Source: Escherichia coli (GTDB lineage Bacteria; Pseudomonadota; Gammaproteobacteria; Enterobacterales; Enterobacteriaceae). From it: a stretch of 64,000 nucleotides of DNA. The DNA lies in the NCBI GenBank assembly GCA_020819635.1, contig GCA_020819635.1_4533.1; one strand, 5' to 3'. The position numbers and the translations under genes are program-made. The notes under the pieces were generated by a model, which saw only the letters and a list, made by a program, of their open reading frames with translations, was not told the DNA's origin and ran no database searches. Shown in pieces: positions 7,077 through 56,814 of this stretch (position 1 is its first letter; each line of letters begins with the position of its first letter).

Positions 7077-7084
7077 TGAAACTA

Positions 7085-7104: not shown

Positions 7105-7120
7105 TTGAGGAGAATTTTAA

Positions 7121-9037: not shown

Positions 9038-9046
9038 GGAGAACTG

Positions 9047-10039: not shown

Positions 10040-10047
10040 GGAGGGTT

Positions 10048-42706: not shown

Positions 42707-44250
42707 GACAATCTCCTCTCATCGTTAGCCATCTTTCATGGCAATCATCAATCACCAACATCATACGATCAATCTTAGGGAATTACAATCGAATTATCAT
42801 AGGGGATTCCTATCAATTATCCCATATATACCGATTATTTTTGACACCCCACTCTTGTATAAAAAGTAACCCAAAATATCTACGGGGAGAGATTATTTCG
42901 ACACACCCTGTTTCATGGCAATCGTGGCAAGAATATCTAATAGAATCAATATCATATGGCAATAATCATGGCGTATACGTAAGAAGTGCTTAACGCGAAT
43001 TTTCGGGCCGTCAGGTCCACGCAGCGACAATTCCCAAATATCATGAGAATGAGAATAATTATCATTCGTATTCAATGACTTATGCAAGGCTCATGCCAAC
43101 ATAGCGACAAGGTGGGCCACTTGATTATAAATCACACAAACACTTATTTATCAATGGTTTGGCAACTTCATCATATGACGGAACAATGTCAACCGATCCT
43201 GCTCATGACAAGCAGACTATTATTTATATGAGAATGATTATTATTTAAACGTTTATTAACATAAAAGCCAAAATAAATCAAGAATTTTCTGATTTTATTT
43301 ACGTTTAAGAGAACGTGCTCAACATATCGCTACGCGATAGTATTCGCCCCCAAAAGATTAGCCTTTATTTTCTTATATGTTTATACACTATGTGCACACT
43401 ATGCAACCTGTCGCTATTCGCTCATGTTGCTACGTGCAATTATTCATCTTGCTAATGATTTCATCTTGTAATTACCACAATGATTATTGTTATTGCGCTA
43501 ATGTTATGATCTTGGTAATTACATATAATGCTAATAATAAGCCAGCGCAATAAGTGTAAGCGTCATTACGCTTGCAATTATTGCAAGCTACGCAGTAACA
43601 AGAAATAACCGTCACCGATGGTTATGATTGTTGGGGTGTAGTTGGCTTATTATTAGCTCGCTATGTGTCCGGCATAGCGTGCTAATGATGACTCTATGAA
43701 TGATTCGTTTTGTAATGATTTCATTCAGGCACTATTATGGCAATAGTTATTATTTTAATGGTTTCGTTTGTTATTGTTCGTTAGTTGGTTGTTTTGTCGT
43801 GTTATCGTTATCCTGCTTAGTATTCATCATGGTTTGATTGTTTGTCGTTATCAATCATCTTGCTACTATTCCTTTGATTATGATTAGTTTGCTTATTGTT
43901 TTACGTTGTTTGTTGGTTAGTTGTTGCGAACTATTATCAACATTATAGTTATGCGCTTATATTGCATAGATAATCATGGATAGATGATAATGGTTATCAT
44001 TGCACTAGAAAGGAGGTAAAAGGGTGTTTTTGATGGTTTGTTGTTGGTTGTTGATCGATTTTAACCGCTCTAAATAGCTCTCTAACAGTTTGTTACCCTG
44101 GGAGGTATGGTTATTCGTTTAATGGTTGATTAGCTCGATACCGCGATTTATTCAGTTTTGTTCTGTGTCGGTTTTTCATAGGCGAAAGCTATCAACATTA
44201 TTCGGGCAAAAAGAAAGGGCGCTTGATGCGCCCCCTTATTTTGTTGTCGA
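42707..44250. other. non-coding AT-rich island with short palindromes and strand-skewed GT-rich tract
   Basis: no ORF of 60 aa or more over about 1.2 kb; palindromes TTGCAATTATTGCAA, CGCTATG...CATAGCG; three copies of the AGAAT(C/G)A..TCAT motif also found at 55.7 kb. Confidence 0.5.
44214..44245 (-). terminator. intrinsic terminator
   Basis: minus strand GGGCGC-atcaa-GCGCCC followed by TTTCTTTTT. Confidence 0.55.
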
Positions 44251-44670
44251 TTATAACGCTTCATAGATTGAGTAGATCCGGTTTGCCAGGTCATTACGAA
44301 AGCGGAATTTTTCATCACGTTTGATCATCAGATCCTTAAAACCGCATTCTTTCAAGGCTTCATTAACTTTATGGCGGCAAACGTTCATATTATCCTGCGC
44401 GTCACCAATAAACTTATTGCTGTGATGCATTGCTTTGATCTCTTCCTCTAATACCAGGGCAACTACACGGACCGGATCAAGCTGATATGCGGTAACATCC
44501 ATGCGGCATTGTAAACGGCTTTTAACATCGTTTACCGGATATACTGCAACCTCTTCCCCGTCAACGTTCACGATAACCAATTTACCATCGATTTCGAAGC
44601 CTTTGGCGGCGCTACCGTGACAAAAAGCGTTATCGAAGGAGTAAGCTGGATTATTTGATTTAATGTTCAT
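44251..44670 (-). CDS. hypothetical protein
   Basis: 139-aa ORF. Confidence 0.5.
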   Translation of the reverse strand: MNIKSNNPAYSFDNAFCHGSAAKGFEIDGKLVIVNVDGEEVAVYPVNDVKSRLQCRMDVTAYQLDPVRVVALVLEEEIKAMHHSNKFIGDAQDNMNVCRHKVNEALKECGFKDLMIKRDEKFRFRNDLANRIYSIYEAL

Positions 44671-44781
44671 GGTGTTGTCCTTTGTTTCGTTTCGTTGTTT
44701 GCTGCCAGTGAGTTAAATATAATATAACGCCGATCCCCTGTCAATAGGGGATAGCGCATTATTTACATTTCTTTACGTTAA

Positions 44782-44810
44782 AGGGCGCTTAGTGCGCCCC
44801 CTTGTATAAT
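44782..44810 (-). terminator. intrinsic terminator
   Basis: GGGCGC-actaa-GCGCCC hairpin with flanking T-run. Confidence 0.5.
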
Positions 44811-44811
44811 C

Positions 44812-45180
44812 TTACTTTGTGCGGTTGTGAACGTTATCGCGTTCAACCATCAGGGCAAGGCGGATCAGTTGATCAGTTGTATCGCGTAAATTGTCGGGCC
44901 ATGTTTTACTGTTCCAGCTATCCAGGTTTGATTGTATATAGGTTTCAATGGCTTGATCCATATTATCAAACAAGTTTTCCTCCAGGCTCTCGGCTGTTTC
45001 ACACTGGAAAGCATTAGCGACACTATTAATCAATAAGCAAGCCAGTAAATCAGCATTGCGCCAATTTTTACGGATAGTTTCATCTGTCAGATAACCGATC
45101 AGATTAACCTTTGCGCCAGTGGTAGACGTTGCGATCACTTCTTGCGCTTTTTCAACTGCTTTAATTGCTGATTTGCTCAT
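44812..45180 (-). CDS. hypothetical protein
   Basis: start set at MSKSAIK after AAGAGGAAAA RBS; ORF-table N-terminus translates the promoter cassette. Confidence 0.5.
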   Translation of the reverse strand: MSKSAIKAVEKAQEVIATSTTGAKVNLIGYLTDETIRKNWRNADLLACLLINSVANAFQCETAESLEENLFDNMDQAIETYIQSNLDSWNSKTWPDNLRDTTDQLIRLALMVERDNVHNRTK

Positions 45181-45197
45181 CTTCTTTTCCTCTTTGT

Positions 45198-45258
45198 GGG
45201 CTTGCTGTATTGCTCGCCCTACGTGATAAATAATAATGTAAGCGTGATCCGGTGTCAA
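45198..45258 (-). promoter_or_regulatory. promoter plus stem-loop cassette (PeSL-like), degenerate copy
   Basis: minus strand TTGACA, 17-nt spacer, TATTAT, then GGGCGAGC...GCAAGCCC. Confidence 0.5.
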
Positions 45259-45564
45259 TAGGTAGAATTGTAAAGATTTGATAGTTTGTTCCTTTGATGT
45301 TTTGTTGTTTGATAGGCGTTAGTTATCAATATATAGCGGGGTCGTCCGGTGATTATCTTCCCCTGTTTCCAGGTGCCGCCCGTTCAATAAGTATAACAAA
45401 AAACAGGACAAAAACAAGCCCTGTTTATTTATCTTAAAACCAGTTGCCAACCGTTTCCAATAGGTCACTGACTACCAGGACAACATTGATCAGCACATGT
45501 TCAACCATGAAGGGGATAAGCGCCAGCGTTGCTACTACGATCCCCATTGTGATGATTACCTTTC

Positions 45565-45855
45565 TCATTGTTGGCGGTTTACGTAAGCTTTACCGTTTAC
45601 GGTCATCGGCATGGCCTCAAGGTCTGGATCTTCCTTAAGGTCGCGTGAAAGCTCACCGCAGCGGATACCCTCGAATCCGTAGTACTCTGTTGTGCCGTCC
45701 TGGAAAGTTTTAGCGGCAAGGCATAGGCGATAATTAACACCGATCCGGTTTACCGCGTTGATATCGGTTAACGTGATGGATTCAGGCAACTCCTTAGCTA
45801 TTACAGGCGCGTTAATACCAACAACCAGGGCAACTACTGCGATCATCTTTTTCAT
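45565..45855 (-). CDS. secreted protein with signal peptide
   Basis: MKKMIAVVALVVGINAPVIA. Confidence 0.5.
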   Translation of the reverse strand: MKKMIAVVALVVGINAPVIAKELPESITLTDINAVNRIGVNYRLCLAAKTFQDGTTEYYGFEGIRCGELSRDLKEDPDLEAMPMTVNGKAYVNRQQ

Positions 45856-45885
45856 GCTTTCTAGCCTCTTCCTATTGCGTTTAAT

Positions 45886-45903
45886 GGGGCGTTACCGCCC
45901 CGC
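45886..45903 (-). promoter_or_regulatory. 5'-UTR stem-loop (hairpin-only copy)
   Basis: GGGGCG-ttac-CGCCCC between genes, no clear -35. Confidence 0.4.
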
Positions 45904-45910
45904 TTATGGT

Positions 45911-46147
45911 TTATTGATTGATGTTATAATGAAAGTTATTTTCTTCAATTGCTTTTAAAATAAAAGCTGTGATCGCTTTCGTGTCTACTTGTTCGAACGT
46001 ATCAGAATAGCACCAATAATGATCATCCCCTACTTTCGGCGGGTAAACCTGGACAAGGAGATCGCCACCTGGTTGATCTATAATCTCAACATGTAAGCCG
46101 GATGATTCAGCGGTTTTAACGGCGGTTAATACTGTTGCAACACTCAT
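45911..46147 (-). CDS. hypothetical protein
   Basis: 78-aa ORF. Confidence 0.45.
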   Translation of the reverse strand: MSVATVLTAVKTAESSGLHVEIIDQPGGDLLVQVYPPKVGDDHYWCYSDTFEQVDTKAITAFILKAIEENNFHYNINQ

Positions 46148-46166
46148 AATCTTTTCCTTTCTGATG

Positions 46167-46184
46167 TGGGGGCGTTGCCGCCCC
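46167..46184 (-). promoter_or_regulatory. 5'-UTR stem-loop (hairpin-only copy)
   Basis: GGGGCG-ttg-CCGCCCC. Confidence 0.4.
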
Positions 46185-46192
46185 TTTGTTGA

Positions 46193-46492
46193 TTAGATCG
46201 CTGTTTCCAGTAGTTCGGCTAACGTCTTACCGCCTGATAGTTGGTCTAACGTTTGCTGTTCCGGCAAGAAATTAGCTGATATTAATCCGACTTGATTCCC
46301 TTTGTGCCAATTAGCTTGACGGATGATTCCATCCTTTAAGGATTTTACCGCCATTGTGCAACCGTCGCCAAATGATTCATTTTTATGATCCATCACTTCA
46401 TAAGCGCCCAGCTTGCTGCTGTTAGGTACCATTAACGCGAATACATCACCAACAACCAGTTTTTCTACGGTAACAATAGCGATAGTTTCCAT
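46193..46492 (-). CDS. hypothetical protein
   Basis: 99-aa ORF. Confidence 0.5.
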   Translation of the reverse strand: METIAIVTVEKLVVGDVFALMVPNSSKLGAYEVMDHKNESFGDGCTMAVKSLKDGIIRQANWHKGNQVGLISANFLPEQQTLDQLSGGKTLAELLETAI

Positions 46493-46510
46493 TTTATTTT
46501 CCTCATTATC

Positions 46511-46567
46511 GGCGGCACCATTGCCGCCCTACGTGGTAAATATTATCACACTGGCGATCCGTGTCAA
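46511..46567 (-). promoter_or_regulatory. promoter plus stem-loop cassette (PeSL-like)
   Basis: minus strand TTGACA, 16-nt spacer, TAATAT, then GGCGGCA-ATGG-TGCCGCC. Confidence 0.6.
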
Positions 46568-46573
46568 TACTTT

Positions 46574-46960
46574 TTATTCAATATAAATCAAATTATCTTC
46601 ACCAATGTAAGCCGACACGTTCGGCATAAACTTAGCTGCATTGGTTAAGCGGTTGGCTGTGTTAGTGGTGTATATTTCAGGGCGATCCCAAAATCCTACG
46701 CCGTGACCGTTACGGGTAAAATGTAAATCATTCCCGATTTGGTTGGCTGTAGCGCCGTCGCTCATTGCCTCAGAGATAGCGGCAAGATTAGCATTAATAA
46801 AGGCTGTTACATCCTGGGCGATCCGTTGATGGGCTTGATCTGAAAAATCATAATCAGTCATGTCATCTATAAAATTACCTTTGTGATCCCTGGCTGATTC
46901 AGCAAAAATAAAGGCTTCTTTGTAGCCGTTGATGATTTCAATAATGATTTCTGTTTTCAT
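46574..46960 (-). CDS. hypothetical protein
   Basis: 128-aa ORF. Confidence 0.5.
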   Translation of the reverse strand: MKTEIIIEIINGYKEAFIFAESARDHKGNFIDDMTDYDFSDQAHQRIAQDVTAFINANLAAISEAMSDGATANQIGNDLHFTRNGHGVGFWDRPEIYTTNTANRLTNAAKFMPNVSAYIGEDNLIYIE

Positions 46961-47181
46961 GCTGTACGCTCGACAATAATAATAGTTTGCGGGATCTCGT
47001 TTTCTACTACTAACAAGGCTTTTTTCTGCGTAATAGATATTTTAACACGTTGTAACGTGGCGGTAAAGTCTTTCATCTCATTATGCGCGGATTTAGTGCA
47101 ATGCCATATTTCAGGTTTACCAATTTGCAAGCCGCGTAAAAATTCTGTTTTACCTGTCTTATTCGTGATCATTTGATTCAC
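46957..47181 (-). CDS. hypothetical protein
   Basis: 74-aa ORF. Confidence 0.4.
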   Translation of the reverse strand: MNQMITNKTGKTEFLRGLQIGKPEIWHCTKSAHNEMKDFTATLQRVKISITQKKALLVVENEIPQTIIIVERTA

Positions 47182-47307
47182 CTTAACCGATACCGTGGGA
47201 AGATAGGATCATGTTAGCCATAGTTGCAACCACTCCAACCGATAACGCCAGGCCCACTATTACAACCGTGAAAATTTTCTCTAACATGATTCTACCCTCA
47301 TTAATGG

Positions 47308-47350
47308 GCGTTGCCTTATTGCCCCGCCCTATTGACGGCGGGGAATACTC
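47308..47350 (-). promoter_or_regulatory. tandem GC-rich stem-loops (hairpin-only copy)
   Basis: GGGCG...CCGCCC and GGCGGGG...CCCCGCC; coordinates approximate. Confidence 0.35.
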
Positions 47351-47365
47351 CCCCCGCCTCATTAA

Positions 47366-47572
47366 TTATTCTTCATCGTCGCCGTTATAGTATTCAATGC
47401 CGTTTTCATCGGTTACAGTGATGTTAACGCCACCGATAGCAACACGATCACGGGCAAACGTCATAGCTTCATTTAAATCTTCAGACCAAAAAATATTGTG
47501 ACCTTTGCGCGATACATAAAACATAGTCGGGATCATGATTTGTTTCTCTTCTGTTGTGAGCGGCTGGACCAT
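47366..47572 (-). CDS. hypothetical protein
   Basis: 68-aa ORF; start uncertain (ATG lies inside the cassette hairpin). Confidence 0.4.
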   Translation of the reverse strand: MVQPLTTEEKQIMIPTMFYVSRKGHNIFWSEDLNEAMTFARDRVAIGGVNITVTDENGIEYYNGDDEE

Positions 47573-47622
47573 TCCGCCGCTCTATGTAATAAACTTTACT
47601 ACGTTGTTTGCCTACTGTCAAA
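47559..47622 (-). promoter_or_regulatory. promoter plus stem-loop cassette (PeSL-like)
   Basis: TTGACA, 17-nt spacer, TAAAGT, then GAGCGGC...GCCGCTC. Confidence 0.5.
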
Positions 47623-47907
47623 TTATTTTTTAATGTTTTGCCCTACAAAATTGATCACTTCCTTAAGCTGTCTCTCTGTCATGATCGTACCTGGTAATTC
47701 TTCTTTTATTTCTTCCGGTAAATAGATATTACCGCGCCAGGTTAACAAACAACCGTTTTGATCTTCGCAGATAGAATAAGAAAACATCCATTCGCAATCA
47801 TTTTCAAGCTCCCAAAAACACAAAAAGTCTTCTTTCCCTAAGTTTTCAACGGTTAAACATAATCCGCGACGTGCTGCATAATTAGTTAGGCTTTTTGTGA
47901 TTTTCAT
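47623..47907 (-). CDS. hypothetical protein
   Basis: start set at MKITKSL; ORF-table extension translates the hairpin. Confidence 0.45.
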   Translation of the reverse strand: MKITKSLTNYAARRGLCLTVENLGKEDFLCFWELENDCEWMFSYSICEDQNGCLLTWRGNIYLPEEIKEELPGTIMTERQLKEVINFVGQNIKK

Positions 47908-47928
47908 GATTTTTCTCTCTTCTTGTGA

Positions 47929-47985
47929 GCGGCACCATTGCCGCCCTACAAGATACATATTACCAGACTACGCGGACTTGTCAAA
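47929..47985 (-). promoter_or_regulatory. promoter plus stem-loop cassette (PeSL-like)
   Basis: TTGACA, 16-nt spacer, TAATAT, then GCGGCA-ATGG-TGCCGC. Confidence 0.6.
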
Positions 47986-48105
47986 CTATTTTTTCTTTTT
48001 CTTTGCTTCCAACCGTCTAAGGTTACGGCTTGACTTATTGCGCAAGGCGCTTAGATCATCATACCCTTTCCAGGCTTGCATGTCTTTCGGATTCATGTTA
48101 TCCCC

Positions 48106-48384
48106 TTAACGGTTGTAAATATTGTGGATAGTGATAAAGGCGCTACGGTCATAAGCTGCCAAATCAGGATTGATCCAAGTGTTATCTAACAGTGTTTCAA
48201 GGATAATCGAATCATCATGAATAGCATCATAAAAATCGGGGCTAACAATAGTGTCAATATCATTTTCCGTTAATTCTGCATTCAGCTTGCAAACCGCTTG
48301 CAAATCTGCTTCACGCTTCCAATCTTGCAGATTAGTAGTCAGCACTTGTTCGATTTCTTCGGTGGATAATTTGGTGATGGTCAT
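48106..48384 (-). CDS. hypothetical protein
   Basis: 92-aa ORF. Confidence 0.5.
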   Translation of the reverse strand: MTITKLSTEEIEQVLTTNLQDWKREADLQAVCKLNAELTENDIDTIVSPDFYDAIHDDSIILETLLDNTWINPDLAAYDRSAFITIHNIYNR

Positions 48385-48403
48385 GATTCTATCTCTCTGT
48401 TAG

Positions 48404-48460
48404 GCGGGGCGCTTGTCGCCCCTATGTGATACATCTTATCAGGTTGATTCAGCTTGTCAA
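48404..48460 (-). promoter_or_regulatory. promoter plus stem-loop cassette (PeSL-like)
   Basis: TTGACA, 16-nt spacer, TAAGAT, then GGGGCG-acaag-CGCCCC. Confidence 0.6.
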
Positions 48461-48461
48461 G

Positions 48462-48662
48462 TTATTTGTTAGCCGGATTATATGCCAGGATCGCGCCACT
48501 TGCTTTCACGCTTTCCGTTTCATAGCTGCGCAAGTTGTCTTCTGTAAGATTGAGCGCGATCACTTCCTCGATCTCAACGTCAGCGGCAAGGGCGATCTCT
48601 TTGATAATGTCTGTTGTTTTCATAGTATGTACCTTATAAGATGATTGATAAGATAGTGACAA
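48462..48662 (-). CDS. hypothetical protein
   Basis: 66-aa ORF. Confidence 0.45.
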   Translation of the reverse strand: MSLSYQSSYKVHTMKTTDIIKEIALAADVEIEEVIALNLTEDNLRSYETESVKASGAILAYNPANK

Positions 48663-48777
48663 CGAAAGCGATTATACTGATGGCAAATGTCATCTTTTTA
48701 CCTTCGGATACTGCCGGATTTTCTACCGTGTATTCTACTGTGTACTTGCTCATCGTGTAATCCTCTCGTTTGCTTTG

Positions 48778-48833
48778 GGAACTATTCCCGCCGCCTTATG
48801 AATTAAATATACACTATCTCAAAATTATTGCAA
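48778..48833 (-). promoter_or_regulatory. promoter plus stem-loop cassette (PeSL-like)
   Basis: TTGCAA, 16-nt spacer, TATATT, then GGGAA-tag-TTCCC. Confidence 0.5.
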
Positions 48834-48848
48834 GCCTTTTCTAAATTT

Positions 48849-49133
48849 TTATGCAGTAAACAAACCATCATTTACAACGGCGGCGATGATCTCCCGTGCC
48901 ATTGATTCAGGGAAAGGGGCGCTATAGTCCTGGCTTGTCTCGTCGGTATCAGTGATCCAATGATAAGCTAACGAGTAAAAGCCTTTACTAACTGTTTTCA
49001 GTGAGATGATGATCACTCGGTCAAGCTTATTGGTGAATGTTGCCGTTAATGTGTTACCCTCCTGCGTCATGTTGGACAAGTAAGCGGGATCATTAATCAG
49101 GGAAAACATTAGCACGGTGTTAGCTTTACTCAT
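48849..49133 (-). CDS. hypothetical protein
   Basis: start set at MSKANTV. Confidence 0.45.
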   Translation of the reverse strand: MSKANTVLMFSLINDPAYLSNMTQEGNTLTATFTNKLDRVIIISLKTVSKGFYSLAYHWITDTDETSQDYSAPFPESMAREIIAAVVNDGLFTA

Positions 49134-49149
49134 GATTGCATCCTCAAAT

Positions 49150-49168
49150 GGGCGCGGCACCATTGCCG
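49150..49168 (-). promoter_or_regulatory. 5'-UTR stem-loop with weak upstream promoter
   Basis: GGCGGCA-ATGG-TGCCGCGCC; -35 not canonical. Confidence 0.4.
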
Positions 49169-49204
49169 CCCTACACGATAACTATAACACAATGTAAAAC
49201 AGGA

Positions 49205-49411
49205 TCAACCTTTATTTTTCCACGGTGTCAGTTTGTTAATCATTGGTGATAAATAACGTTTACCAACGTAAAACAGCACGCCAACTGATGCAACGGCGGC
49301 GATCTCATGCATAGCCGACGGGAAACGGGTATCATAATAAGATCCAATAATAGCAATAGCGGCAACGGCTGCAACGTCGATAATGATTTTTTCTTGTTTT
49401 GCGGTGATCAT
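49205..49411 (-). CDS. small membrane protein
   Basis: 68 aa, hydrophobic AAVAAIAIIGSY segment. Confidence 0.45.
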   Translation of the reverse strand: MITAKQEKIIIDVAAVAAIAIIGSYYDTRFPSAMHEIAAVASVGVLFYVGKRYLSPMINKLTPWKNKG

Positions 49412-49433
49412 AATATTTACCTTTTTGTATGGT

Positions 49434-49490
49434 GGGGAACTATTCCCCGCCTGATGTAATACAGTTTAACAGGTCCGGTTATGGTGTCAA
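49434..49490 (-). promoter_or_regulatory. promoter plus stem-loop cassette (PeSL-like)
   Basis: TTGACA, 16-nt spacer, TAAACT, then GGGGAA-tag-TTCCCC. Confidence 0.6.
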
Positions 49491-49496
49491 CCACTT

Positions 49497-49682
49497 TTAA
49501 AGATATTTTATACTGATAACGTTTTCCGGTTTAACCTTGTTGTGATGTGCATCAACATAGATCAAACCATCGTCAGAAAAGCCCAGGATCACGCCCTGCG
49601 CAATAAAACCGTATTCGTCACGGTAACGCACGGCTATTTTTAATGTTGCGTTGTAGGCTGTTTTAAGCTCGTTTAAAGTCAT
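49497..49682 (-). CDS. hypothetical protein
   Basis: 61-aa ORF. Confidence 0.4.
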   Translation of the reverse strand: MTLNELKTAYNATLKIAVRYRDEYGFIAQGVILGFSDDGLIYVDAHHNKVKPENVISIKYL

Positions 49683-49702
49683 TTTTGTTTATCCTCTACA
49701 TG

Positions 49703-49735
49703 TAAAAAGAAAGGGCGCTAGATGCGCCCTTGTTA
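49703..49735 (-). terminator. intrinsic terminator
   Basis: GGGCGC-atcta-GCGCCC hairpin with flanking T-run. Confidence 0.5.
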
Positions 49736-49902
49736 TGTTAATCCTCTAAATCCATCCAATTATATTTGTCACTCTTCCCGCGCTTTGTTTTATTGCGCTT
49801 GTCGCCTTTGCGGATCACTTCCTCATTCCAGGCCTTGCGGATCTTGGAAGATTGAATTTTTTCTGCGCGATTAGATGTATTCATTTTGTTTCCTCTTTAT
49901 AT

Positions 49903-49957
49903 GAGCGGCACCATTGCCGCTATATTATTAATTTAAACTGTTTTGTAAAATTGTCAA
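49903..49957 (-). promoter_or_regulatory. promoter plus stem-loop cassette (PeSL-like), compressed
   Basis: TTGACA, 16-nt spacer, TAAATT, hairpin GCGGCA-ATGG-TGCCGC. Confidence 0.5.
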
Positions 49958-49963
49958 GGTTTA

Positions 49964-50317
49964 TCATTCATAAGAGCAAGCAAGGATCACGCCTGCAATA
50001 TAAAGCCAATAATTTTCCCTTTCTCGTTGGATTTTATCATCGCTGCTATTCTCTTTAATGTATCCCCAGGATGTTAACAAGCGATCCACTTCCCAATATT
50101 CGAAAGCGATATTAATGTCTGATGGCAAACCTTGTAACCATGATGCAAGTGCTTTAACAATACTATAATTAAAACGTGATTGGTTATCAGGGTACCAGTA
50201 TTCGGAATTAAAACGGCGCATCAATTCCGCGATCTTCTCTTTTTCGGTTGTAATACCATAATCATTAAAATCGATAGCGGCAAGGATGTACTCTTTAATT
50301 GCATTTTGTGCTTTCAT
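49964..50317 (-). CDS. hypothetical protein
   Basis: 117-aa ORF. Confidence 0.5.
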   Translation of the reverse strand: MKAQNAIKEYILAAIDFNDYGITTEKEKIAELMRRFNSEYWYPDNQSRFNYSIVKALASWLQGLPSDINIAFEYWEVDRLLTSWGYIKENSSDDKIQRERENYWLYIAGVILACSYE

Positions 50318-50336
50318 GGTCTTTCTCTCTTTTTTA

Positions 50337-50393
50337 GCGGGAACTCTTCCCGCCCTATGTGTAACAGTTTACTGAAAATTAAATCTGTGTCAA
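50337..50393 (-). promoter_or_regulatory. promoter plus stem-loop cassette (PeSL-like)
   Basis: TTGACA, 16-nt spacer, TAAACT, then GCGGGAA-gag-TTCCCGC. Confidence 0.6.
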
Positions 50394-50396
50394 GTT

Positions 50397-50618
50397 TTAT
50401 TTTGTTACTACCATTTGGTACCCTGTTTCAATGTTGCTAAACACTGTTATCCCGTCCTGGCGTTCACTCATTAGCATACAAGGCGCTAACATCCTTTCTA
50501 CTGCCTTGCACTCGTTGTAAACGGCGGTTATATCTCCTGCTGCCTTGTCTTCTGTAGTAAATGTCTCATTTACGTAAACTTGACCAGCGACAACGGCGAC
50601 AATAGCAAAAGTGATCAT
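50397..50618 (-). CDS. hypothetical protein
   Basis: 73-aa ORF. Confidence 0.45.
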   Translation of the reverse strand: MITFAIVAVVAGQVYVNETFTTEDKAAGDITAVYNECKAVERMLAPCMLMSERQDGITVFSNIETGYQMVVTK

Positions 50619-50691
50619 GATGTTTTTCTCTTTATGTGTTTCGATTAGTTGATATTACAGCAATTCACAGATTAGTTTTTAGCAATTCGTG

Positions 50692-50910
50692 CTATTTACT
50701 CATAACAGTATCGAAAACAAATTTTTCTTTGTTGTCAAAGCTCACGTATCCGATTCGACCACGCAAGCCGCGAGTAGTGCCGTATTCGTAACCGTCAAGA
50801 CCTTTAACCTTCCAATCCACGCCCATTAAAACCGCATTATATTTCTGACCAACTACAAACGCGCCACCAGTTGATTCAATGCAAACAACTTTAATTTTAC
50901 GGATTGCCAT
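50692..50910 (-). CDS. hypothetical protein
   Basis: 72-aa ORF. Confidence 0.45.
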   Translation of the reverse strand: MAIRKIKVVCIESTGGAFVVGQKYNAVLMGVDWKVKGLDGYEYGTTRGLRGRIGYVSFDNKEKFVFDTVMSK

Positions 50911-50950
50911 TTTCTTTCTCTCTTTCTGGTGATTGGTTTCTCTTCTCTAT

Positions 50951-50985
50951 AGCGCCCATTATAAGGCGCTATAACGAAAAGTCAA
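50951..50985 (-). promoter_or_regulatory. sigma70-like promoter with -10 inside a palindrome
   Basis: TTGACT, 16-nt spacer, TATAAT; the -10 sits in the loop of TATAGCGCC...GGCGCTATA. Confidence 0.55.
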
Positions 50986-51178
50986 CGATTATTTTTAAGG
51001 CTTAAAGTACCTAACTTGTCAGCATGACGCAGACCAGGGAAGATCCATTTTCCTGATTCATCTTTTACAGGGGCTTTAAGCGTAGCGCCTAGGTTGGCGG
51101 CGTTAACTTTACGTGCAACGTTGCGAGCGGCTTCACGGGTAGCGAAAGTGATCATGGTGTTTTCCTCTTCTCTTTGTT

Positions 51179-51241
51179 AGGCGGTGGACCATTCCGCCGC
51201 CTTGATGTAATACAGTTTACTTTATTTTTGCAGTATTGCAA
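51179..51241 (-). promoter_or_regulatory. promoter plus stem-loop cassette (PeSL-like)
   Basis: TTGCAA, 16-nt spacer, TAAACT, then GGCGGCGG...CCACCGCC. Confidence 0.55.
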
Positions 51242-51247
51242 GCGGTT

Positions 51248-51460
51248 TTATGAAATAATCGTCAAAGTAAAATTGTAATCACCTGATTGATATAATACTT
51301 TATCACCGAACGTTCCAACACGTTTAACATTGCAATATATACCCATAACACTTTTTACATCTTTGATATTCTTCACGCCTGTAATGTCTTTATTGAAATA
51401 CTCGTCATCTGAAAATAAAACTTGACTTGCATTTTTTAACAGTGTGCGGATATTAGCCAT
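51248..51460 (-). CDS. hypothetical protein
   Basis: 70-aa ORF. Confidence 0.45.
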   Translation of the reverse strand: MANIRTLLKNASQVLFSDDEYFNKDITGVKNIKDVKSVMGIYCNVKRVGTFGDKVLYQSGDYNFTLTIIS

Positions 51461-51483
51461 CGTAATAATCTCTCTTCTGTTGT

Positions 51484-51541
51484 GAGCGGCACCATTGCCG
51501 CCCTATGTAATACAGTTTACTCTTTTTCTTTCCGGTGTCAA
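51484..51541 (-). promoter_or_regulatory. promoter plus stem-loop cassette (PeSL-like)
   Basis: TTGACA, 16-nt spacer, TAAACT, then GCGGCA-ATGG-TGCCGC. Confidence 0.6.
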
Positions 51542-51550
51542 CAATCTTTT

Positions 51551-51778
51551 TCAGATCAATTCATCCAGGCATAACAGGCGATCAACGTTGAGATCGGTTA
51601 GGCTGATGGTTGGCACCTGGTAGGATTCGATGTACTCGACGCTTGCATATTCCCCAAAATTAGCAATAGCCCACTTATTCAAGATCTCACATACATCATT
51701 AATCTTTTTGTTTGTTACAACTGCAATAACCTGGGAAGTGCCAACGGTGCCGGATACGCGAACAATATTGATAGCCAT
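51551..51778 (-). CDS. hypothetical protein
   Basis: 75-aa ORF. Confidence 0.45.
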   Translation of the reverse strand: MAINIVRVSGTVGTSQVIAVVTNKKINDVCEILNKWAIANFGEYASVEYIESYQVPTISLTDLNVDRLLCLDELI

Positions 51779-51799
51779 AATCTTTAATCTCTCTGTTGT

Positions 51800-51859
51800 T
51801 GGCGGGAAACCACTTCCCGCCCTATGTGATACATCTTACACTAATTTTAAACGTTGTCA
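51800..51859 (-). promoter_or_regulatory. promoter plus stem-loop cassette (PeSL-like)
   Basis: TTGACA, 16-nt spacer, TAAGAT, then GCGGGAA-gtggt-TTCCCGC; near-identical to the copy at 54746. Confidence 0.6.
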
Positions 51860-51869
51860 ACTGTTTTTA

Positions 51870-52109
51870 TTACATTCCAACCATTGCAGCACGGATCGCC
51901 GTAGTGCTATACTTGAATCCGTCCGGCGTTGTAGTAGTACCGTTGGCTTTTAATCTGCGGTACATACATTCCGCAGCAATATCTTTAGTTCTACTTTGTG
52001 CGATGCAACTTTGAGCAAGCCGATACAATGACTCACCGTTATTAATCCATAAGGAAACATTCCAATGAGTTTTGTTTTTGTGACCTAAGAACATTTTAGA
52101 TTTAGCCAT
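51870..52109 (-). CDS. hypothetical protein
   Basis: 79-aa ORF. Confidence 0.45.
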   Translation of the reverse strand: MAKSKMFLGHKNKTHWNVSLWINNGESLYRLAQSCIAQSRTKDIAAECMYRRLKANGTTTTPDGFKYSTTAIRAAMVGM

Positions 52110-52132
52110 GATTTTTCTCTCTTTTTCAGTGA

Positions 52133-52192
52133 GGCGGGAAGTGTTCCCGCTCTCTATGTAATACAGTTTACTCTTTTTATTGGTGCTGTCAA
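52133..52192 (-). promoter_or_regulatory. promoter plus stem-loop cassette (PeSL-like)
   Basis: TTGACA, 16-nt spacer, TAAACT, then GCGGGAA-cac-TTCCCGC. Confidence 0.6.
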
Positions 52193-52198
52193 TGCTTT

Positions 52199-52564
52199 TT
52201 ATAAATCTTTTTTACGTTTAACATCGCTCGCATGACTGTATACAGTGATCCCATTGTCACGGCAAAAACGGGAAAGATACGCGCCGCGTGAAAACTCTTT
52301 ACCTTCCATATTAATAACCTTGCTAAACTCTTCCAGGGCGACGGTATCAAAATGATCACCATAGCCATATTGAAACGGAACGTTAACCACCTCGATCAGT
52401 TTACCGCCGATCTCAACGTCAACCATTAAAGAAAAATATGTGTTACCGTAGGACTGTTGAAACCAGCGACGGGCGCTAATATGCACCGCCTCAATGCTGG
52501 ATAATTCAATTTTAGCCGTGTTAGCCAGGGTAGCATAAGCGGAAACATTGATATTAATAGCCAT
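52199..52564 (-). CDS. hypothetical protein
   Basis: 121-aa ORF. Confidence 0.5.
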   Translation of the reverse strand: MAININVSAYATLANTAKIELSSIEAVHISARRWFQQSYGNTYFSLMVDVEIGGKLIEVVNVPFQYGYGDHFDTVALEEFSKVINMEGKEFSRGAYLSRFCRDNGITVYSHASDVKRKKDL

Positions 52565-52590
52565 GGTGTCACTCTCTCTTTTTGGTTAGT

Positions 52591-52642
52591 GGGAAGTATT
52601 CCCGATAAAAGTTATTATGCTTATACTATCACTCATTGTCAA
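52591..52642 (-). promoter_or_regulatory. promoter plus stem-loop cassette (PeSL-like)
   Basis: TTGACA then CATAAT/TAATAA -10 region, hairpin GGGAA-tac-TTCCC. Confidence 0.5.
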
Positions 52643-52870
52643 TAGTATAAGACTAAAACTTTTAACGATAATCGTTATAGGCTTTATTGACCTGGCGAAT
52701 GTAACATTCGAAAGCAAGATCAATGTATTCGTATTCACGCACATAATCACCATAGGTCACTACATACATTTTTAAAGTTTCCTCATAAGCCAGGAGGATC
52801 GAATCTAAACCTATAATCTCAGTTTTTGCAATGATAGCCATGATGTTAACCTTTTATTGTTGGCGGCACC

Positions 52871-52927
52871 ATTGCCGCCCTACGTGATAAACTATACCAG
52901 AAGTTTAAACAGTGTCAACCGTTTTTA
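52871..52927 (-). promoter_or_regulatory. promoter plus stem-loop cassette (PeSL-like)
   Basis: TTGACA, 16-nt spacer, TATAGT, then GGCGGCA-ATGG-TGCCGCC. Confidence 0.6.
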
Positions 52928-53287
52928 TTCGTAAATTTTACCGCTTTCGGCCCATACCATAACGCGGCGCATACTATCCCAAGTGTTTTGATCCAGGTTT
53001 AAGCCGTGCAACTCTTCGGTACTTCCCAGACCAGGTACCGCCTTGTTATAAGTTGCATATAAGCGCCCTTGATACTCATACGCTAGGGTGAGATCCGTTT
53101 GAATCATCTTTTTAAGCATAGCATTAAGCATCGTGTTAGCGGCATATTGATCACGTTTTAGCGGTAACATGTCAATAAGGGCGCGATAAGCTGAAACATG
53201 AATATCAACCGTTTCACGTGGTAAATTTTTCATATCGTCGCGGAAAGATACCAGATTAAACATGATAGTATTGATTTGCTTGCTCAT
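52925..53287 (-). CDS. hypothetical protein
   Basis: 120-aa ORF. Confidence 0.5.
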   Translation of the reverse strand: MSKQINTIMFNLVSFRDDMKNLPRETVDIHVSAYRALIDMLPLKRDQYAANTMLNAMLKKMIQTDLTLAYEYQGRLYATYNKAVPGLGSTEELHGLNLDQNTWDSMRRVMVWAESGKIYE

Positions 53288-53308
53288 TGTGTTACCCTTT
53301 TTTGTTTT

Positions 53309-53369
53309 GGCGGGGAAGTATTCCGCCGCCCTATGTGATACATCTTATCAGATTAAAAAACGTTGTCAA
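53309..53369 (-). promoter_or_regulatory. promoter plus stem-loop cassette (PeSL-like)
   Basis: TTGACA, 16-nt spacer, TAAGAT, then GGCGGCGGAA-tac-TTCCCCGCC. Confidence 0.6.
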
Positions 53370-53501
53370 GAATATTTTTTAGAAAATAATAGCCGCTACT
53401 ACAACCCAAAATGGAACGGCGAAAATGATAGCGTTAATCGTTCCAACCGTCAAGCTATTTTCTTTATTAATCATTGTAAACCTCTTGCATAATTTCACTA
53501 T

Positions 53502-53560
53502 GAGCGGCACCATTGCCGCCCTACGTGGTAAATATTATGCCAGTGGCGGCGATATGTCAA
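53502..53560 (-). promoter_or_regulatory. promoter plus stem-loop cassette (PeSL-like)
   Basis: TTGACA, 17-nt spacer, TAATAT, then GGCGGCA-ATGG-TGCCGC. Confidence 0.6.
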
Positions 53561-54123
53561 AGACTATTTTCAAAGTTTTCTAGTGCGATCCTTTTTTCTT
53601 CCTCTGTCGGCTGATAATCAGGAAAAGCATCAACACACAACAACGGCGGGATCTCTTCGTACTCTTCCTCTTCCGTTGTCTCCTCGTCTTCCTCCTGGGC
53701 TATGGCTGCAATTTTGGCTAATTTTCTTTCAGCTTGAATCAATTTACCATCAAGTACGTTTTTTGCCATGTTGTAAGCGGTCCAGGTGATGCGCTTACTT
53801 TCCAATGCTTCATCAAGCGCCGCTATCTTGCTGGGGTATTCATCCAGGACACGAAAAGCCGGATCAATTTTGTACAAAGGATTATCTTTCGCGCCGTCGC
53901 TCGCATCTTCCGCACTGGATAAATCAGCGTTACCATTTGCCAGCCAACCAGGGCGCACATAACGCGCTTTTACGTTGCCGTTACTACGTGCTAATCTGTT
54001 ACCTATTTGCTCACCGCTATATCCCGTGGATTCATCGATAAGATGATCGGGAATGATGCGCGGATCATCTGCTTCATGTTTTACCCAAGACTGGATCACA
54101 TATTCGCGGCCCATATTAACCAC
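53557..54123 (-). CDS. hypothetical protein with acidic C-terminal region
   Basis: 188-aa ORF; start uncertain. Confidence 0.5.
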   Translation of the reverse strand: MVNMGREYVIQSWVKHEADDPRIIPDHLIDESTGYSGEQIGNRLARSNGNVKARYVRPGWLANGNADLSSAEDASDGAKDNPLYKIDPAFRVLDEYPSKIAALDEALESKRITWTAYNMAKNVLDGKLIQAERKLAKIAAIAQEEDEETTEEEEYEEIPPLLCVDAFPDYQPTEEEKRIALENFENSL

Positions 54124-54373
54124 CTTTTTTCAACAATTGGCATACTTTAAAAAGACTTGCTGAATCCTTGCAAGGGTAGAAAGATGTACGATAATCACGT
54201 ACGCCAACCTTGCGGATCTCGATGTTTTCGCATGTTGTTTGATCAAAGATATTTATTTCATCACGCCCCCTTATATAAACATAGTGGGGATGTATTAACG
54301 CATATTTTGCTAATCTGTAAAAAGCGTTATCTTTGAACGCGATCACGTGACCTTTTAATTTGATGTAAAACAT
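54116..54373 (-). CDS. hypothetical protein
   Basis: 85-aa ORF. Confidence 0.45.
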   Translation of the reverse strand: MFYIKLKGHVIAFKDNAFYRLAKYALIHPHYVYIRGRDEINIFDQTTCENIEIRKVGVRDYRTSFYPCKDSASLFKVCQLLKKGG

Positions 54374-54390
54374 TCTACCACCTTACAAAT

Positions 54391-54446
54391 AGCGGGAACT
54401 ATTCCCGCTTTATGTAACATATTAACAAATTATTCGTTAATGTCAA
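54391..54446 (-). promoter_or_regulatory. promoter plus stem-loop cassette (PeSL-like)
   Basis: TTGACA, 16-nt spacer, TAATAT, then GCGGGAA-tag-TTCCCGC. Confidence 0.6.
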
Positions 54447-54449
54447 GCC

Positions 54450-54722
54450 TTAAAGCAAAAACGCTACATCTTGCGCTTTTAGTGTAGTATCAACCATTTT
54501 TGGGCTTTTATAATCAACAAAGCGCGCGGTTTTTTCAATAGCGAAACCGAGATAATCTTGTTTATTGAATTTACATTCTTTCTTAAATGTTTCCCGCGCC
54601 ACGGTGATCGCTGCGTCCAGGGATAAACGCCCGTCAATGTTGATGTTAGCGAAAGATCCGCCACCGCTCATAGGTTTACCAGTTGTGCCAGCTACGATCA
54701 TTGTTGCGCTATATGATGCCAT
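54450..54722 (-). CDS. hypothetical protein
   Basis: 90-aa ORF. Confidence 0.45.
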   Translation of the reverse strand: MASYSATMIVAGTTGKPMSGGGSFANINIDGRLSLDAAITVARETFKKECKFNKQDYLGFAIEKTARFVDYKSPKMVDTTLKAQDVAFLL

Positions 54723-54745
54723 GATGATAATCTCTCTTCTGTTAC

Positions 54746-54806
54746 GAGCGGGAAACCACTTCCCGCCCTATGTGATACATCTTATCAGGTTGTTGTTTGT
54801 TGTCAA
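54746..54806 (-). promoter_or_regulatory. promoter plus stem-loop cassette (PeSL-like)
   Basis: TTGACA, 16-nt spacer, TAAGAT, then GCGGGAA-gtggt-TTCCCGC. Confidence 0.6.
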
Positions 54807-54812
54807 TAGTTT

Positions 54813-55012
54813 TTATTCTATTCCTGCGATTTGATTAACGCGCTTGCATTTTGTAGCGTGCTGGTCTTCTGTAATGACTCCCATTTCTAACAGGGAATCA
54901 ATGAAAGATAAAACCGTTTCATGATCATCCTGGGGGTGACTGAACTCAGTAAAACCGTTTACCACTACGTTGATTTGTCCAGCTTTCGCCACAATGTGCA
55001 ATGTTGCCATGA
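54813..55012 (-). CDS. hypothetical protein
   Basis: start set at MATLHIVAK; ORF-table extension (LVGRQWCRS) translates the hairpin. Confidence 0.45.
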
Positions 55013-55028
55013 TCTTAACTCCAAATAG

Positions 55029-55088
55029 TGAGCGGCACCATTGCCGCCCTACAAGATGAATACTACGCCGCCGCCTGGTTAACGTCAA
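55029..55088 (-). promoter_or_regulatory. promoter plus stem-loop cassette (PeSL-like), first of array
   Basis: TTGACG, 17-nt spacer, TAGTAT, then GGCGGCA-ATGG-TGCCGC. Confidence 0.55.
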
Positions 55089-55196: not shown

Positions 55197-55463
55197 ATGA
55201 CAAATACTACATTACACCTTATGCACTCATTGGGCTGGCAAGGCGGCACGGTGCACCAGGTAGCAAGCGCAACGGGCTTAAAGGTTGAAACCGTTCTCAA
55301 CCTGGGCGATCATAAGGTGGAAGAGATAGATCATTTTGATACGTTCGCAAATGGTTATCTATGGGCTTGCAGTGGCGGCGGGGAAAGCAAGATACCACCA
55401 GGGGCGCGGGGCGATATGTATTTTTGGTTAGGTGTCCTATCCTGGCAAGAAAACAAAAAATAA
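55197..55463 (+). CDS. hypothetical protein (isolated plus-strand ORF)
   Basis: 88-aa ORF with AAGGG RBS; GC-richer than surroundings; reality uncertain. Confidence 0.3.
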   Translation: MTNTTLHLMHSLGWQGGTVHQVASATGLKVETVLNLGDHKVEEIDHFDTFANGYLWACSGGGESKIPPGARGDMYFWLGVLSWQENKK

Positions 55464-55465
55464 TC

Positions 55466-55494
55466 TTGACAAGCCCAGGGATCGGGCTTATACT
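55466..55494 (+). promoter_or_regulatory. strong sigma70-like promoter
   Basis: TTGACA, 17-nt spacer (itself an AGCCC...GGGCT inverted repeat), TATACT. Confidence 0.5.
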
Positions 55495-55499
55495 GTTTT

Positions 55500-55700
55500 A
55501 CATACAGAAGAGGAAGCGCCACCCCACGGCGTAAAGGCGGGGCTAACATACCAGGGGGCACTGGTTGGAAGGTTGATCGCCGGTAGGCTGGGTGCTATAT
55601 ATTTGTAAAGAAATGTAAAGATAAAATAATCGCTTGCTTTCCTGGCTGGATCTGTTATTCTTATTACATGGCGAGGGGACACGGGAGCGCGAGACAAACA
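55500..55700 (+). ncRNA. candidate small non-coding RNA, GC-rich and structured
   Basis: directly downstream of a consensus promoter; no plausible ORF; locally GC-rich in an AT-rich genome; only Pro/Arg-rich antisense ORFs. Confidence 0.2.
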
Positions 55701-55722
55701 CCGCCCCTGCGCGTCATTCTCT

Positions 55723-55838
55723 AAATGAGAATGATTGTCATTTACCTTATTAAATAAGAATCAATCTCATTTATAAACTTAAATGCGAATCATTATCATT
55801 TGCATTTCCATATGAGAACTCTTCTCATTTTCACCTGC
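55723..55838. repeat. four tandem 29-bp repeats with palindromic core (operator or iteron-like)
   Basis: copies start at 55723, 55752, 55781 and 55810 (exact 29-bp period); core aAATGaGAATnaTtnTCATTT with inverted-repeat symmetry. Confidence 0.6.
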
Positions 55839-55851
55839 ATAAAAATTTTTG

Positions 55852-55910
55852 TAAACTTTAAATTTTGCTTTTGTACTTTCATTTTTGTAAAAGCAAAAAA
55901 ACTTTAAATA
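55852..55910. repeat. AT-rich direct repeat, copy A (about 58 bp)
   Basis: TAAACTTTAAATTTTGCTTTTGTACTTTCATTTTTGTAAA...ACTTTAAATA; about 85% identical to copy B. Confidence 0.5.
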
Positions 55911-55989
55911 CTGTGGGCGCGCAAAATTTTTAAAATTTTCCTTGACTTTTGAGTTTTGTTTTGTATCTAACATTTTAAGATAATTTTCC

Positions 55990-56047
55990 TAAACTTTAAA
56001 TTTTGGTTTTCAACTTTCACTTTTGTAAATTCTTAAAAAGTTTAAAT
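55990..56047. repeat. AT-rich direct repeat, copy B
   Basis: TAAACTTTAAATTTTGGTTTTCAACTTTCACTTTTGTAAA...GTTTAAATA, 138 bp downstream of copy A. Confidence 0.5.
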
Positions 56048-56177
56048 AATTTGAGGGATTTTTGAGATAAAAGATAGTGGGAATTTGATATAACCTTTAA
56101 TCTTATTGGTAAACCTTCAGGAACCCACTCAGATCGAATCCTAGTGATGCAAACTGAAAAAGACAAGGGTTTGTATA

Positions 56178-56216
56178 GGACAAAATAACAGGCTCTCTAC
56201 GGTGCTGTAGGAGCCT
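56178..56216 (-). terminator. intrinsic terminator of the minus-strand operon
   Basis: minus strand AGGCTCCTACAGCACCGTAGAGAGCCT hairpin followed by GTTATTTTGT. Confidence 0.5.
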
Positions 56217-56271
56217 TATTTCTGTGCTACAAAGTGACACCTTTGTTCTAAAAATGAAAAAAGTTAAAATA

Positions 56272-56814
56272 TCACAAATATCGTCTTTGCGGTATTTTGT
56301 CTGGGAAAAGTATTTCGATCAGTTTATTATGATATTTGCCTAAAAGATTCTGCCCTTTCCAGGTAGCAGGGTTTAGCACCCCTGGTTCATACATTCCCAT
56401 TCCAATACCGTAAACCTTATCGTAAGGACTTGCTTCAACAAACGTTTTGTATTGGTAAAGGTGTAAATCTGCATACAAATCTGGATTCTGTACATATTTC
56501 AAGCATAAGCCTCGCATAACAATACGCTCACGGTTCTCTTCCCACATATCATTATTAAAACCAGATACCGCTCGACCCATACGTTTGTAGTATGCTTGTT
56601 TCCTCTCGTTGTCACGTATAGTTGAGTGATCAAGGATAGCTGCTGCAATCGCATGATCCTTGAACAGCAAAGCCTTACGCCACATCATATATTGCTCAAC
56701 ACAACAGAAAGTCTCATTGTAACCTGGTTCAGTTTCTGTAAAGGGTGCAATATACCAATTACTAAACACATCTTTATGTGAAAAGAAGAATACATATTCA
56801 TCAGTTATTCTCAT
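56272..56814 (-). CDS. NADAR-domain protein (YbiA-like)
   Basis: VFFFSHKDVFSNWY and VEQYMMWRKA match NADAR family hallmarks. Confidence 0.75.
   Translation of the reverse strand: MRITDEYVFFFSHKDVFSNWYIAPFTETEPGYNETFCCVEQYMMWRKALLFKDHAIAAAILDHSTIRDNERKQAYYKRMGRAVSGFNNDMWEENRERIVMRGLCLKYVQNPDLYADLHLYQYKTFVEASPYDKVYGIGMGMYEPGVLNPATWKGQNLLGKYHNKLIEILFPDKIPQRRYL

Follow-up and report, generated by a model that had tools for sequence, protein, structure and literature searches.

A conserved array of four candidate Fur operators in a non-coding region of a virulent Escherichia coli phage

The metal-loaded dimer of Fur binds inverted repeats of the 9-1-9 (7-1-7) type. The stx1 promoter of Shiga-toxin prophages is repressed by Fur, and a lambda-type origin consists of four palindromic iterons for the O protein, followed by an AT-rich region. 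Footprints of Fur extend over 30-103 bases, and the Fur titration assay (FURTA) exploits the titration of Fur in vivo by Fur boxes present in multicopy (Chen et al., 2007; PMC2189734). In the T5 region that we compare below, the repeats have been described as of unknown function, with no mention of Fur (Davison, bioRxiv 10.1101/866236), and raised occupancy by Fur-Fe protects E. coli from T5 (PMC7553319). Here, we describe an array of four palindromic 29-bp repeats at positions 55723-55838 of a 64,000-nucleotide stretch of DNA (the window; GenBank assembly GCA_020819635.1, contig GCA_020819635.1_4533.1), and we examine how these repeats compare with the operators of host Fur. The window is DNA of a Phapecoctavirus (phAPEC8-like, Stephanstirmvirinae), a virulent E. 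coli myovirus with a genome of ~150 kb; across 55400-56300, it matches phage vB_EcoM_3A1_SA_NWU at 100% identity and ~60 further records at 98-100%.

A first-pass annotation of the window had reported four 29-bp units with a palindromic core, beginning at 55723, 55752, 55781 and 55810. The sequence itself, a repeat search (which returned the array family at spacing 29, 29) and the centres of weight-matrix matches (period exactly 29) all bear this out. Each unit is made up of a 21-bp core and an 8-bp spacer: at 55723, AAATGAGAATGATTGTCATTT followed by ACCTTATT; at 55752, AAATAAGAATCAATCTCATTT followed by ATAAACTT; at 55781, AAATGCGAATCATTATCATTT followed by GCATTTCC; and at 55810, ATATGAGAACTCTTCTCATTT followed by TCACCTGC. 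Scored with the E. coli Fur matrix introduced below, the cores are box 1 (55723..55743, centre 55733; 22.9 bits), box 2 (55752..55772, centre 55762; 21.5 bits), box 3 (55781..55801, centre 55791; 24.1 bits) and box 4, the weakest copy (55810..55830, centre 55820; 19.2 bits), with a secondary site of 12.3 bits at 55797, 6 bp off box 3. Each core is self-complementary at 16-18 of its 21 positions. Between units, the cores agree at 15-18 of 21 positions and the spacers at 1-4 of 8; cores that are conserved amid unrelated spacers suggest that selection acts on the core and that the array is not a recent duplication. The array is absent from the output of Tandem Repeats Finder, since the units are only ~60-70% alike overall. 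When the window was searched with the 17-mer consensus ATGAGAATNATTCTCAT, allowing up to 3 mismatches, we found 7 matches against 0.83 expected (0 of 100 shuffles reached 7), all of them inside two non-coding islands. The array region is 28% G+C, and a period of 29 bp corresponds to 2.76 helical turns, placing neighbouring boxes out of phase. With BLAST, which is unsuited to short degenerate sites, the array had no significant match among 5,426 E. coli genomes; we therefore relied on weight matrices.

To compare the repeats with Fur boxes, we built a matrix from the host only, by palindromic expectation-maximisation on 11 Fur-regulated intergenic regions of E. coli K-12 with zero phage input. 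The run converged on AATGATAATCATTATCATT, with G as the second commonest base (27%) where the phage boxes have G. With this matrix, the top seven sites of the 64-kb window were exactly seven boxes, namely the four of the array and three in the other non-coding island (island 1), at 19.2-27.3 bits, and the next independent site scored 13.9. The best sites of the 11 K-12 Fur promoters span 15.6-26.3 bits, the same range as the phage boxes, these promoter scores being slightly inflated because the same sites trained the matrix. In dinucleotide-preserving shuffles, sites of at least 19 bits numbered 0.105 when the window was shuffled and 0.014 when only the islands were, against 7 observed; and across 350 kb of K-12 (scanned as seven 50-kb pieces), a single site outside the training promoters reached 19 bits. 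In the rest of an identical phage genome (86 kb), no site rose above 13.9 bits, and therefore all strong boxes sit in the two islands. The first-pass annotation had called for a genome-wide weight-matrix search and had noted related motifs in both islands. Such a search returned seven strong sites, far above chance and confined to the islands, with none elsewhere in the genome.

The reverse comparison gave the same picture. A phage-only matrix, made from six window sites (the four repeats and the sites centred at 43057 and 43236), placed ryhB, fecI, fhuA, fepB-entC, fecA, cirA and exbB among its top 10 matches (7 of 10) in the 350 kb of K-12; of the 17 best matches there, 12 were known Fur-repressed promoters. 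The six-site consensus is AAATGAGAATCATTCTCATTT; all four cores and the three sites of island 1 fit the Fur-box pattern AATGATAATNATTATCATT, and the phage consensus AATGAGAATNATTCTCATT is letter for letter the Fur-box consensus of Xanthomonas campestris, AATGAgAATcATTctCATT (PMC1790865). It had also been noticed that AATCATTATC in copy 3 matches part of the enterobacterial Fur box, and this is correct: it is a sub-string of the 19-bp Fur consensus GATAATGATAATCATTATC. Searching with that classical 19-mer at up to 3 mismatches retrieved one site only, which is a weak test given a register offset of 3 bp from the phage palindrome. The earlier suggestion that these could be host Fur sites is thus supported at the level of sequence, where the host-only matrix, the phage-only matrix and a published consensus agree. 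ArgR, Zur and other regulators with AT-rich palindromic operators were rejected on half-site spacing, and the K-12 scan returned Fur promoters and not theirs. The phage-derived matrix also picked out K-12 sites of 15.6-19.8 bits outside the classical Fur promoters, in the map-rpsB intergenic region, upstream of dps and at yeiS-preT (positions 49590, 49076 and 13870 of the respective 50-kb pieces); these may be minor Fur sites or false positives.

Island 1 (~42707-44250) lies at the far end of an array of small-gene cassettes. Of the related sites that had been placed there at about 42939, 43043 and 43226, the latter two stand as strong boxes, at 43047..43067 (centre 43057; 27.3 bits, the best of the window) and 43226..43246 (centre 43236; 24.3 bits), the former with a secondary site of 15.0 bits at 43063, 6 bp away; the site near 42939 is weak (9.2 bits) and we do not count it. 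A further box, absent from the first-pass annotation, lies at 43982..44002 (centre 43992; 23.6 bits). The first two boxes fall within, and the third outside, a probable direct terminal repeat of 329 bp (42991..43319) that would form both ends of the DNA in the virion: the record of Phapecoctavirus Schickermooser begins and ends with the same 329 bp (100% identity), which correspond to window 42991-43319, several other records start or end at 42991/42992 or 43320, and the relative BME3 has a PhageTerm-derived terminal repeat of 342 bp with two boxes at homologous positions, one of them homologous to 43057. If 42991-43319 is the terminal repeat, then the window spans the junction of the genome ends, and a virion genome would carry ~9 strong boxes, that is, the seven plus two in the second copy of the repeat. 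The four-box array is 12.7 kb from the terminus, or 8.5% of the genome, and this interval is filled by the early-type cassette array.

Next, we examined whether the array is kept in related phages. The module around it was aligned for eight phages of the Stephanstirmvirinae (phAPEC8, muut, phiWec179, PHB05 and Klebsiella phage FKP3 among them) and the Vequintavirinae (Cronobacter phage PBES02 and Salmonella phage SSE121); these named phages, together with AV125, carry 1-5 boxes at the equivalent position. On the + strand, the alignment shows a constant order: promoter P1, a GC-rich block of ~90 nt, the motif TTTGTAAAGAAATGTAAAGA, a P2-like element, a hairpin and box 1, then further boxes, three longer AT-rich repeats and a terminator. 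Box 1, directly after the hairpin, is the sole box fixed in position in all eight. Similarly, among IMG/VR contigs with the GC-rich block, box 1 is found at the same offset in 14 of 15, and the commonest spacing is 29 bp. In the exceptional contig, a gene with a ribosome-binding site stands directly after the RNA-like block and displaces hairpin and Fur box; by eye, the inserted gene looks like a homing endonuclease. Several relatives, as well as an unrelated contig whose three perfect boxes recur every 30 bp, have a sigma-70 promoter 20-30 bp past the last box, on the + strand in the relatives. At least 120 viral contigs contain the palindrome AATGAGAATNATTCTCATT without mismatch, 14 of them with three or more boxes in an array. 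In one viral contig, three perfect 30-bp units (1810-1888) are immediately followed by a TTGACA-17-TATAAT promoter and a short hairpin RNA, and an IMG/VR contig has 10 Fur-box sites of at least 21 bits within 11 kb (2127-10699).

In the window, P1 (TTGACA-17-TATACT; 55466..55494, + strand) has 11 of 12 consensus matches and is kept in relatives. It is followed by the GC-rich non-coding block (ACATACAGAAGAGGAAGCGCCACCCCACGGCGTAAAGGCGGGGCTAAC...GATCGCCGGTAG; 55501..55590, + strand), near-invariant across both subfamilies, which is a candidate phage small RNA. RNAalifold predicted 16 pairs in this block, one of them covarying (AU in 6 sequences, GC in 6), and it contains a pseudoknot-like CCCC/GGGG complementarity. 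At gathering thresholds, Rfam found nothing in the window, the GC-rich block included, and over the island at E <=10 it returned only far-sub-threshold hairpin and small nucleolar RNA noise. P2 (TTGCTT-16-TATTCT) and the hairpin GGCGAGGGG...CCGCCCCTGCGC (together 55634..55712, + strand) are conserved in the eight phages; the hairpin ends 10 bp before box 1, and P2 is a putative promoter, too weak for a consensus promoter scan. Past the boxes lies an AT-rich region (55842..56053; 21% G+C) with three iterated repeats bearing AAACTTTAAAT / AAAAAGTTTAAATA cores (repeat families D2-D4), which could be iterons, an unwinding element or phage-specific promoters. At this place muut, PBES02 and SSE121 have three repeats of ~45-70 bp of a different sequence, and FKP3 also has AT-rich repeats. 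The element TTTAAATA within the AT-rich repeats resembles the T4 late promoter TATAAATA.

The array also gave BLAST matches to the left terminal repeats of T5-like siphoviruses. T5_ev212 and Spc35 have at least five boxes scoring 16-28 bits, some of them perfect AAATGAGAATGATTCTCATTT palindromes, adjoining known DnaA boxes, and the 21-mer of box 3 is identical in Spc35. The annotated injection stop signal (iss) of T5 itself (NC_005859.1) contains boxes at 9561 (22.4 bits), 9665 (28.0 bits) and 9700 (23.2 bits); they are near DnaA boxes and ~50 bp before the major nick at 9748. From their position beside the DnaA boxes, we infer that they correspond to the repeats called 'DRE1/DRE2'. In two T5-like records besides the T5 reference, near-perfect Fur boxes lie at 2063-2578 and 2122-2607. 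Arrays are thus present in at least three phage groups, the Stephanstirmvirinae, the Vequintavirinae and the T5-like Demerecviridae. By tblastn, 15 proteins of the T5 left terminal repeat, including A1 and the DNA-binding A2, had no homologue in the phage of the window, which rules out machinery of the A1/A2 type there.

The boxes are equivalent in sequence to the best host Fur operators, strongly enriched, confined to two islands and conserved in position. Each has the inverted repeat, a score in the host range and a reciprocal match between host and phage matrices. We therefore consider it likely that the four repeats form a close-packed array of four high-affinity operators for host Fur, and likely, if anything slightly more so, that Fur binds the boxes. 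A phage-encoded Fur was rejected: tblastn with an E. coli Fur query, which matched a Salmonella fragment at 99.3%, found no Fur homologue in these phage groups. Since boxes occur in T5-like phages, none of the 15 T5 proteins tested is shared and no phage Fur was found, a host protein is the simplest common factor, and host Fur is the best candidate for the binder. Phages of these groups thus probably sense or make use of the iron regulator of their host. Each 21-bp core would accommodate one Fur dimer as a 9-1-9 (7-1-7) inverted repeat. A centre spacing of 29 bp is about the length of one Fur footprint, so that in an iron-replete cell Fur would coat the array over ~116 bp, with P2 and its hairpin on one side and the AT-rich repeats on the other. 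As to what such a coat might do, we propose only tentatively that its main role is iron-dependent gating of transcription in cis. Fur-Fe2+ would gate + strand transcription that enters or crosses the AT-rich repeats, by stopping read-through from P2, by hindering the promoter found past the boxes in relatives, or both. What is gated could be a regulatory RNA or else an origin activated by transcription, and the outcome would be an early non-coding phage function tied to the iron status of the host. As a side effect, the ~9 boxes per virion genome, multiplied by replication, might sequester Fur.

Several observations weigh against this proposal. The number of boxes (1 to 5) and their spacing (17-40 bp) differ among relatives, with spacings of 23-29 bp in muut; the exact period of 29 bp is thus neither universal nor essential. 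The boxes of the window have no clear overlap with a strong sigma-70 promoter, P2 being ~64 bp upstream of box 1, and the window equivalent of the promoter that relatives have past the last box is not convincing. A promoter-like TTTACA-17-GAAAAT on the minus strand has its -10 element over box 4; we do not rely on this site, as it is not conserved in relatives. The + strand downstream of the boxes has no protein-coding gene, and iron-related genes of the phage, such as that for class III ribonucleotide reductase, carry no box, which argues against a conventional iron regulon. T5 degrades host DNA early (Davison, bioRxiv 10.1101/866236), and titration of Fur off host promoters therefore cannot be the general purpose of the arrays. 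Our literature search returned no binding or expression data for the boxes of these phages.

The same features can be read in other ways. Were the boxes to bind Fur as a decoy in trans, replicating phage DNA would derepress host iron uptake and feed phage metabolism. The ~9 boxes of 19-27 bits per virion genome, the known derepression of the Fur regulon by multicopy Fur boxes (the FURTA principle), the lack of an obvious promoter under the boxes and the iron-sulfur dependence of the phage's class III ribonucleotide reductase would all suit such a decoy. It remains unlikely in our view: the strictly conserved position of box 1 next to the hairpin would be needless for a pure sponge, some relatives such as SSE121 keep a single box, T5-like phages have arrays yet destroy host DNA early, and boxes that are placed in the terminal repeat and at a single internal island point to a role in cis. 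We give somewhat less credit to the idea that Fur is not a gene regulator here but a pre-formed host factor, architectural in role, on phage DNA that is entering or replicating; T5 iss would share this role. The arrays at the terminal repeat and at 8.5% into the genome would then bracket the sigma-70-driven cassettes of small early genes and mark either an origin or, as in T5, a pause or boundary in the entry of DNA. Improbable as we judge it, this would make Fur boxes the long-sought cis element of the T5 injection stop signal, with DNA entry or early development dependent on host iron status.

The first-pass annotation had offered, next to host Fur, operators or iterons for a phage-encoded regulator, and a binder such as the product of the neighbouring 88-amino acid (aa) open reading frame (ORF) could act at a lambda-type origin with an AT-rich unwinding region. 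The layout is compatible with this: four palindromic sites adjoin a 21% G+C region with three iterated repeats, promoters are directed into that region, and the ORF is conserved, with a helix-turn-helix-like stretch, GGTVHQVASATGLKVETVLNL, read by eye and lacking Pfam support. The option is weakened by what is known of the motif, and we regard it as quite unlikely, little better or worse off than the decoy. T5-like phages bear the boxes and have no homologue of the 88-aa ORF that we could find, nor do the 15 tested T5 proteins have one here; scans in either direction cannot tell the motif apart from the host Fur matrix; its consensus does not drift between the three phage groups, whereas iterons normally co-evolve with their initiator; the sites are out of helical phase; and neither island has a DnaA box. 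The ORF is an unlikely binder in its own right, having no Pfam family or known domain and homologues limited to the phAPEC8/phi92 group and a few others. A role of the palindromes as nucleic-acid structure, either RNA hairpins on the + strand (terminators or processing sites) or DNA cruciforms, is very doubtful. Each core is near-palindromic, a terminator scan flags 55713-55735 (a hairpin of ATTCTC and box 1), and there is a weak Rfam hairpin-type match over boxes 1-2 (E = 0.25). Against this, one specific sequence is conserved rather than pairing, with half-sites diverging independently within the 16-18 self-complementary positions of 21, the stems are AU-rich and weak, the Rfam matches are far below gathering scores, and the same sequence is a protein-binding consensus for Fur in bacteria. 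Finally, an origin of the units by recent tandem duplication or by chance, without function, might be suspected in a region this rich in AT; the shuffle counts for the islands (0.014 against 7), the conserved cores amid unrelated spacers and the conservation of the array across subfamilies refute it for practical purposes.

The array island (55464-56271; 808 bp) lies between the 88-aa ORF and a NADAR-domain gene (56272-56814, minus strand; Pfam E = 3e-35), beside which a bidirectional terminator hairpin (56187..56213; annotated as a terminator in phAPEC8) closes the island. The genes surrounding the array are on the minus strand; opposed to them is the lone 88-aa ORF (55197-55463, + strand; phrog_19316, function unassigned), whose terminator hairpin overlaps P1. 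The cassette array (44251-55088, minus strand) comprises ~35 small genes. In the phAPEC8 record, each unit that was checked has a conserved 5' hairpin and a sigma-70 promoter of its own, such as TTGACG-17-TAGTAT at 55088-55060. The 5' hairpin TAGGGCGGCAATGGTGCCGCTCA is termed 'PHIRE promoter' in the phAPEC8 annotation and resembles a stem-loop of a 5' untranslated region more than a promoter. ARAGORN found no tRNA in the window.

Fur boxes themselves are textbook operators. What is new is the setting: virulent phages of three groups keep, in non-coding and terminal regions, arrays of Fur boxes of the host type, and our search of the literature on Fur boxes in virulent phages or T5 found no description of this. 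If Fur binds them, an abundant metal sensor of the host would be wired into an early cis-acting function of the phage, and the availability of iron in gut or blood could alter the outcome of infection. This bears on phage therapy, in which both phAPEC8-like and T5-like phages serve against pathogenic E. coli and Salmonella. The 50-year-old question of the T5 injection stop would become open to simple experiments, and, speculatively, Fur boxes in T5 offer another possible reading of the protection result of PMC7553319.

The array can be set beside the Fur-box clusters of E. coli at ryhB, fecI, fhuA, fepB-entC, cirA and other promoters (Chen et al., 2007; PMC2189734). Both have 19-bp inverted repeats in the same score range, occasional secondary sites 6 bp off (43063 and 55797 here) and multiple sites, which here would give footprints of ~100 bp. 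The phage boxes differ in lying on a virulent genome, in non-coding islands and a terminal repeat, in having no clear overlap with the -35/-10 elements of a gene promoter and no iron gene downstream, and in forming four full sites at a regular 29 bp, where the E. coli clusters overlap at 3 or 6 bp. The X. campestris consensus, identical to that of the phage, was defined upstream of bacterial genes for TonB-dependent receptors and not in phage (Blanvillain et al., 2007; PMC1790865). As in the lambda origin, four tandem palindromes of ~20 bp stand beside AT-rich repeats with transcription running in; unlike in lambda, the sites fall outside genes, neighbours are not in helical phase and the match is to a host regulator and not to a phage initiator, and the helical phasing and cognate initiator that define an iteron-type origin were not found. 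The stx1 case also places a host Fur box on a phage genome, as a single operator at a cargo-gene promoter of a temperate phage, whereas here arrays occupy non-coding or terminal regions of virulent phages. In T5, the boxes are combined with paired DnaA boxes inside a 10-kb terminal repeat, with proteins A1 and A2; here the islands have no DnaA boxes, the terminal repeat is 329 bp and no A1 or A2 homologue was found, so that by its defining features the locus is not an injection stop signal of the T5 type. The layout is nevertheless similar to that of the iss region with its DRE repeats and nearby palindromes: the box sequence is the same (spaced at 29 and 35 bp), other direct repeats come in series after the boxes, and the boxes lie near the genome end, at 8.5% of the genome here and at 7.9%, the first-step-transfer segment, in T5.

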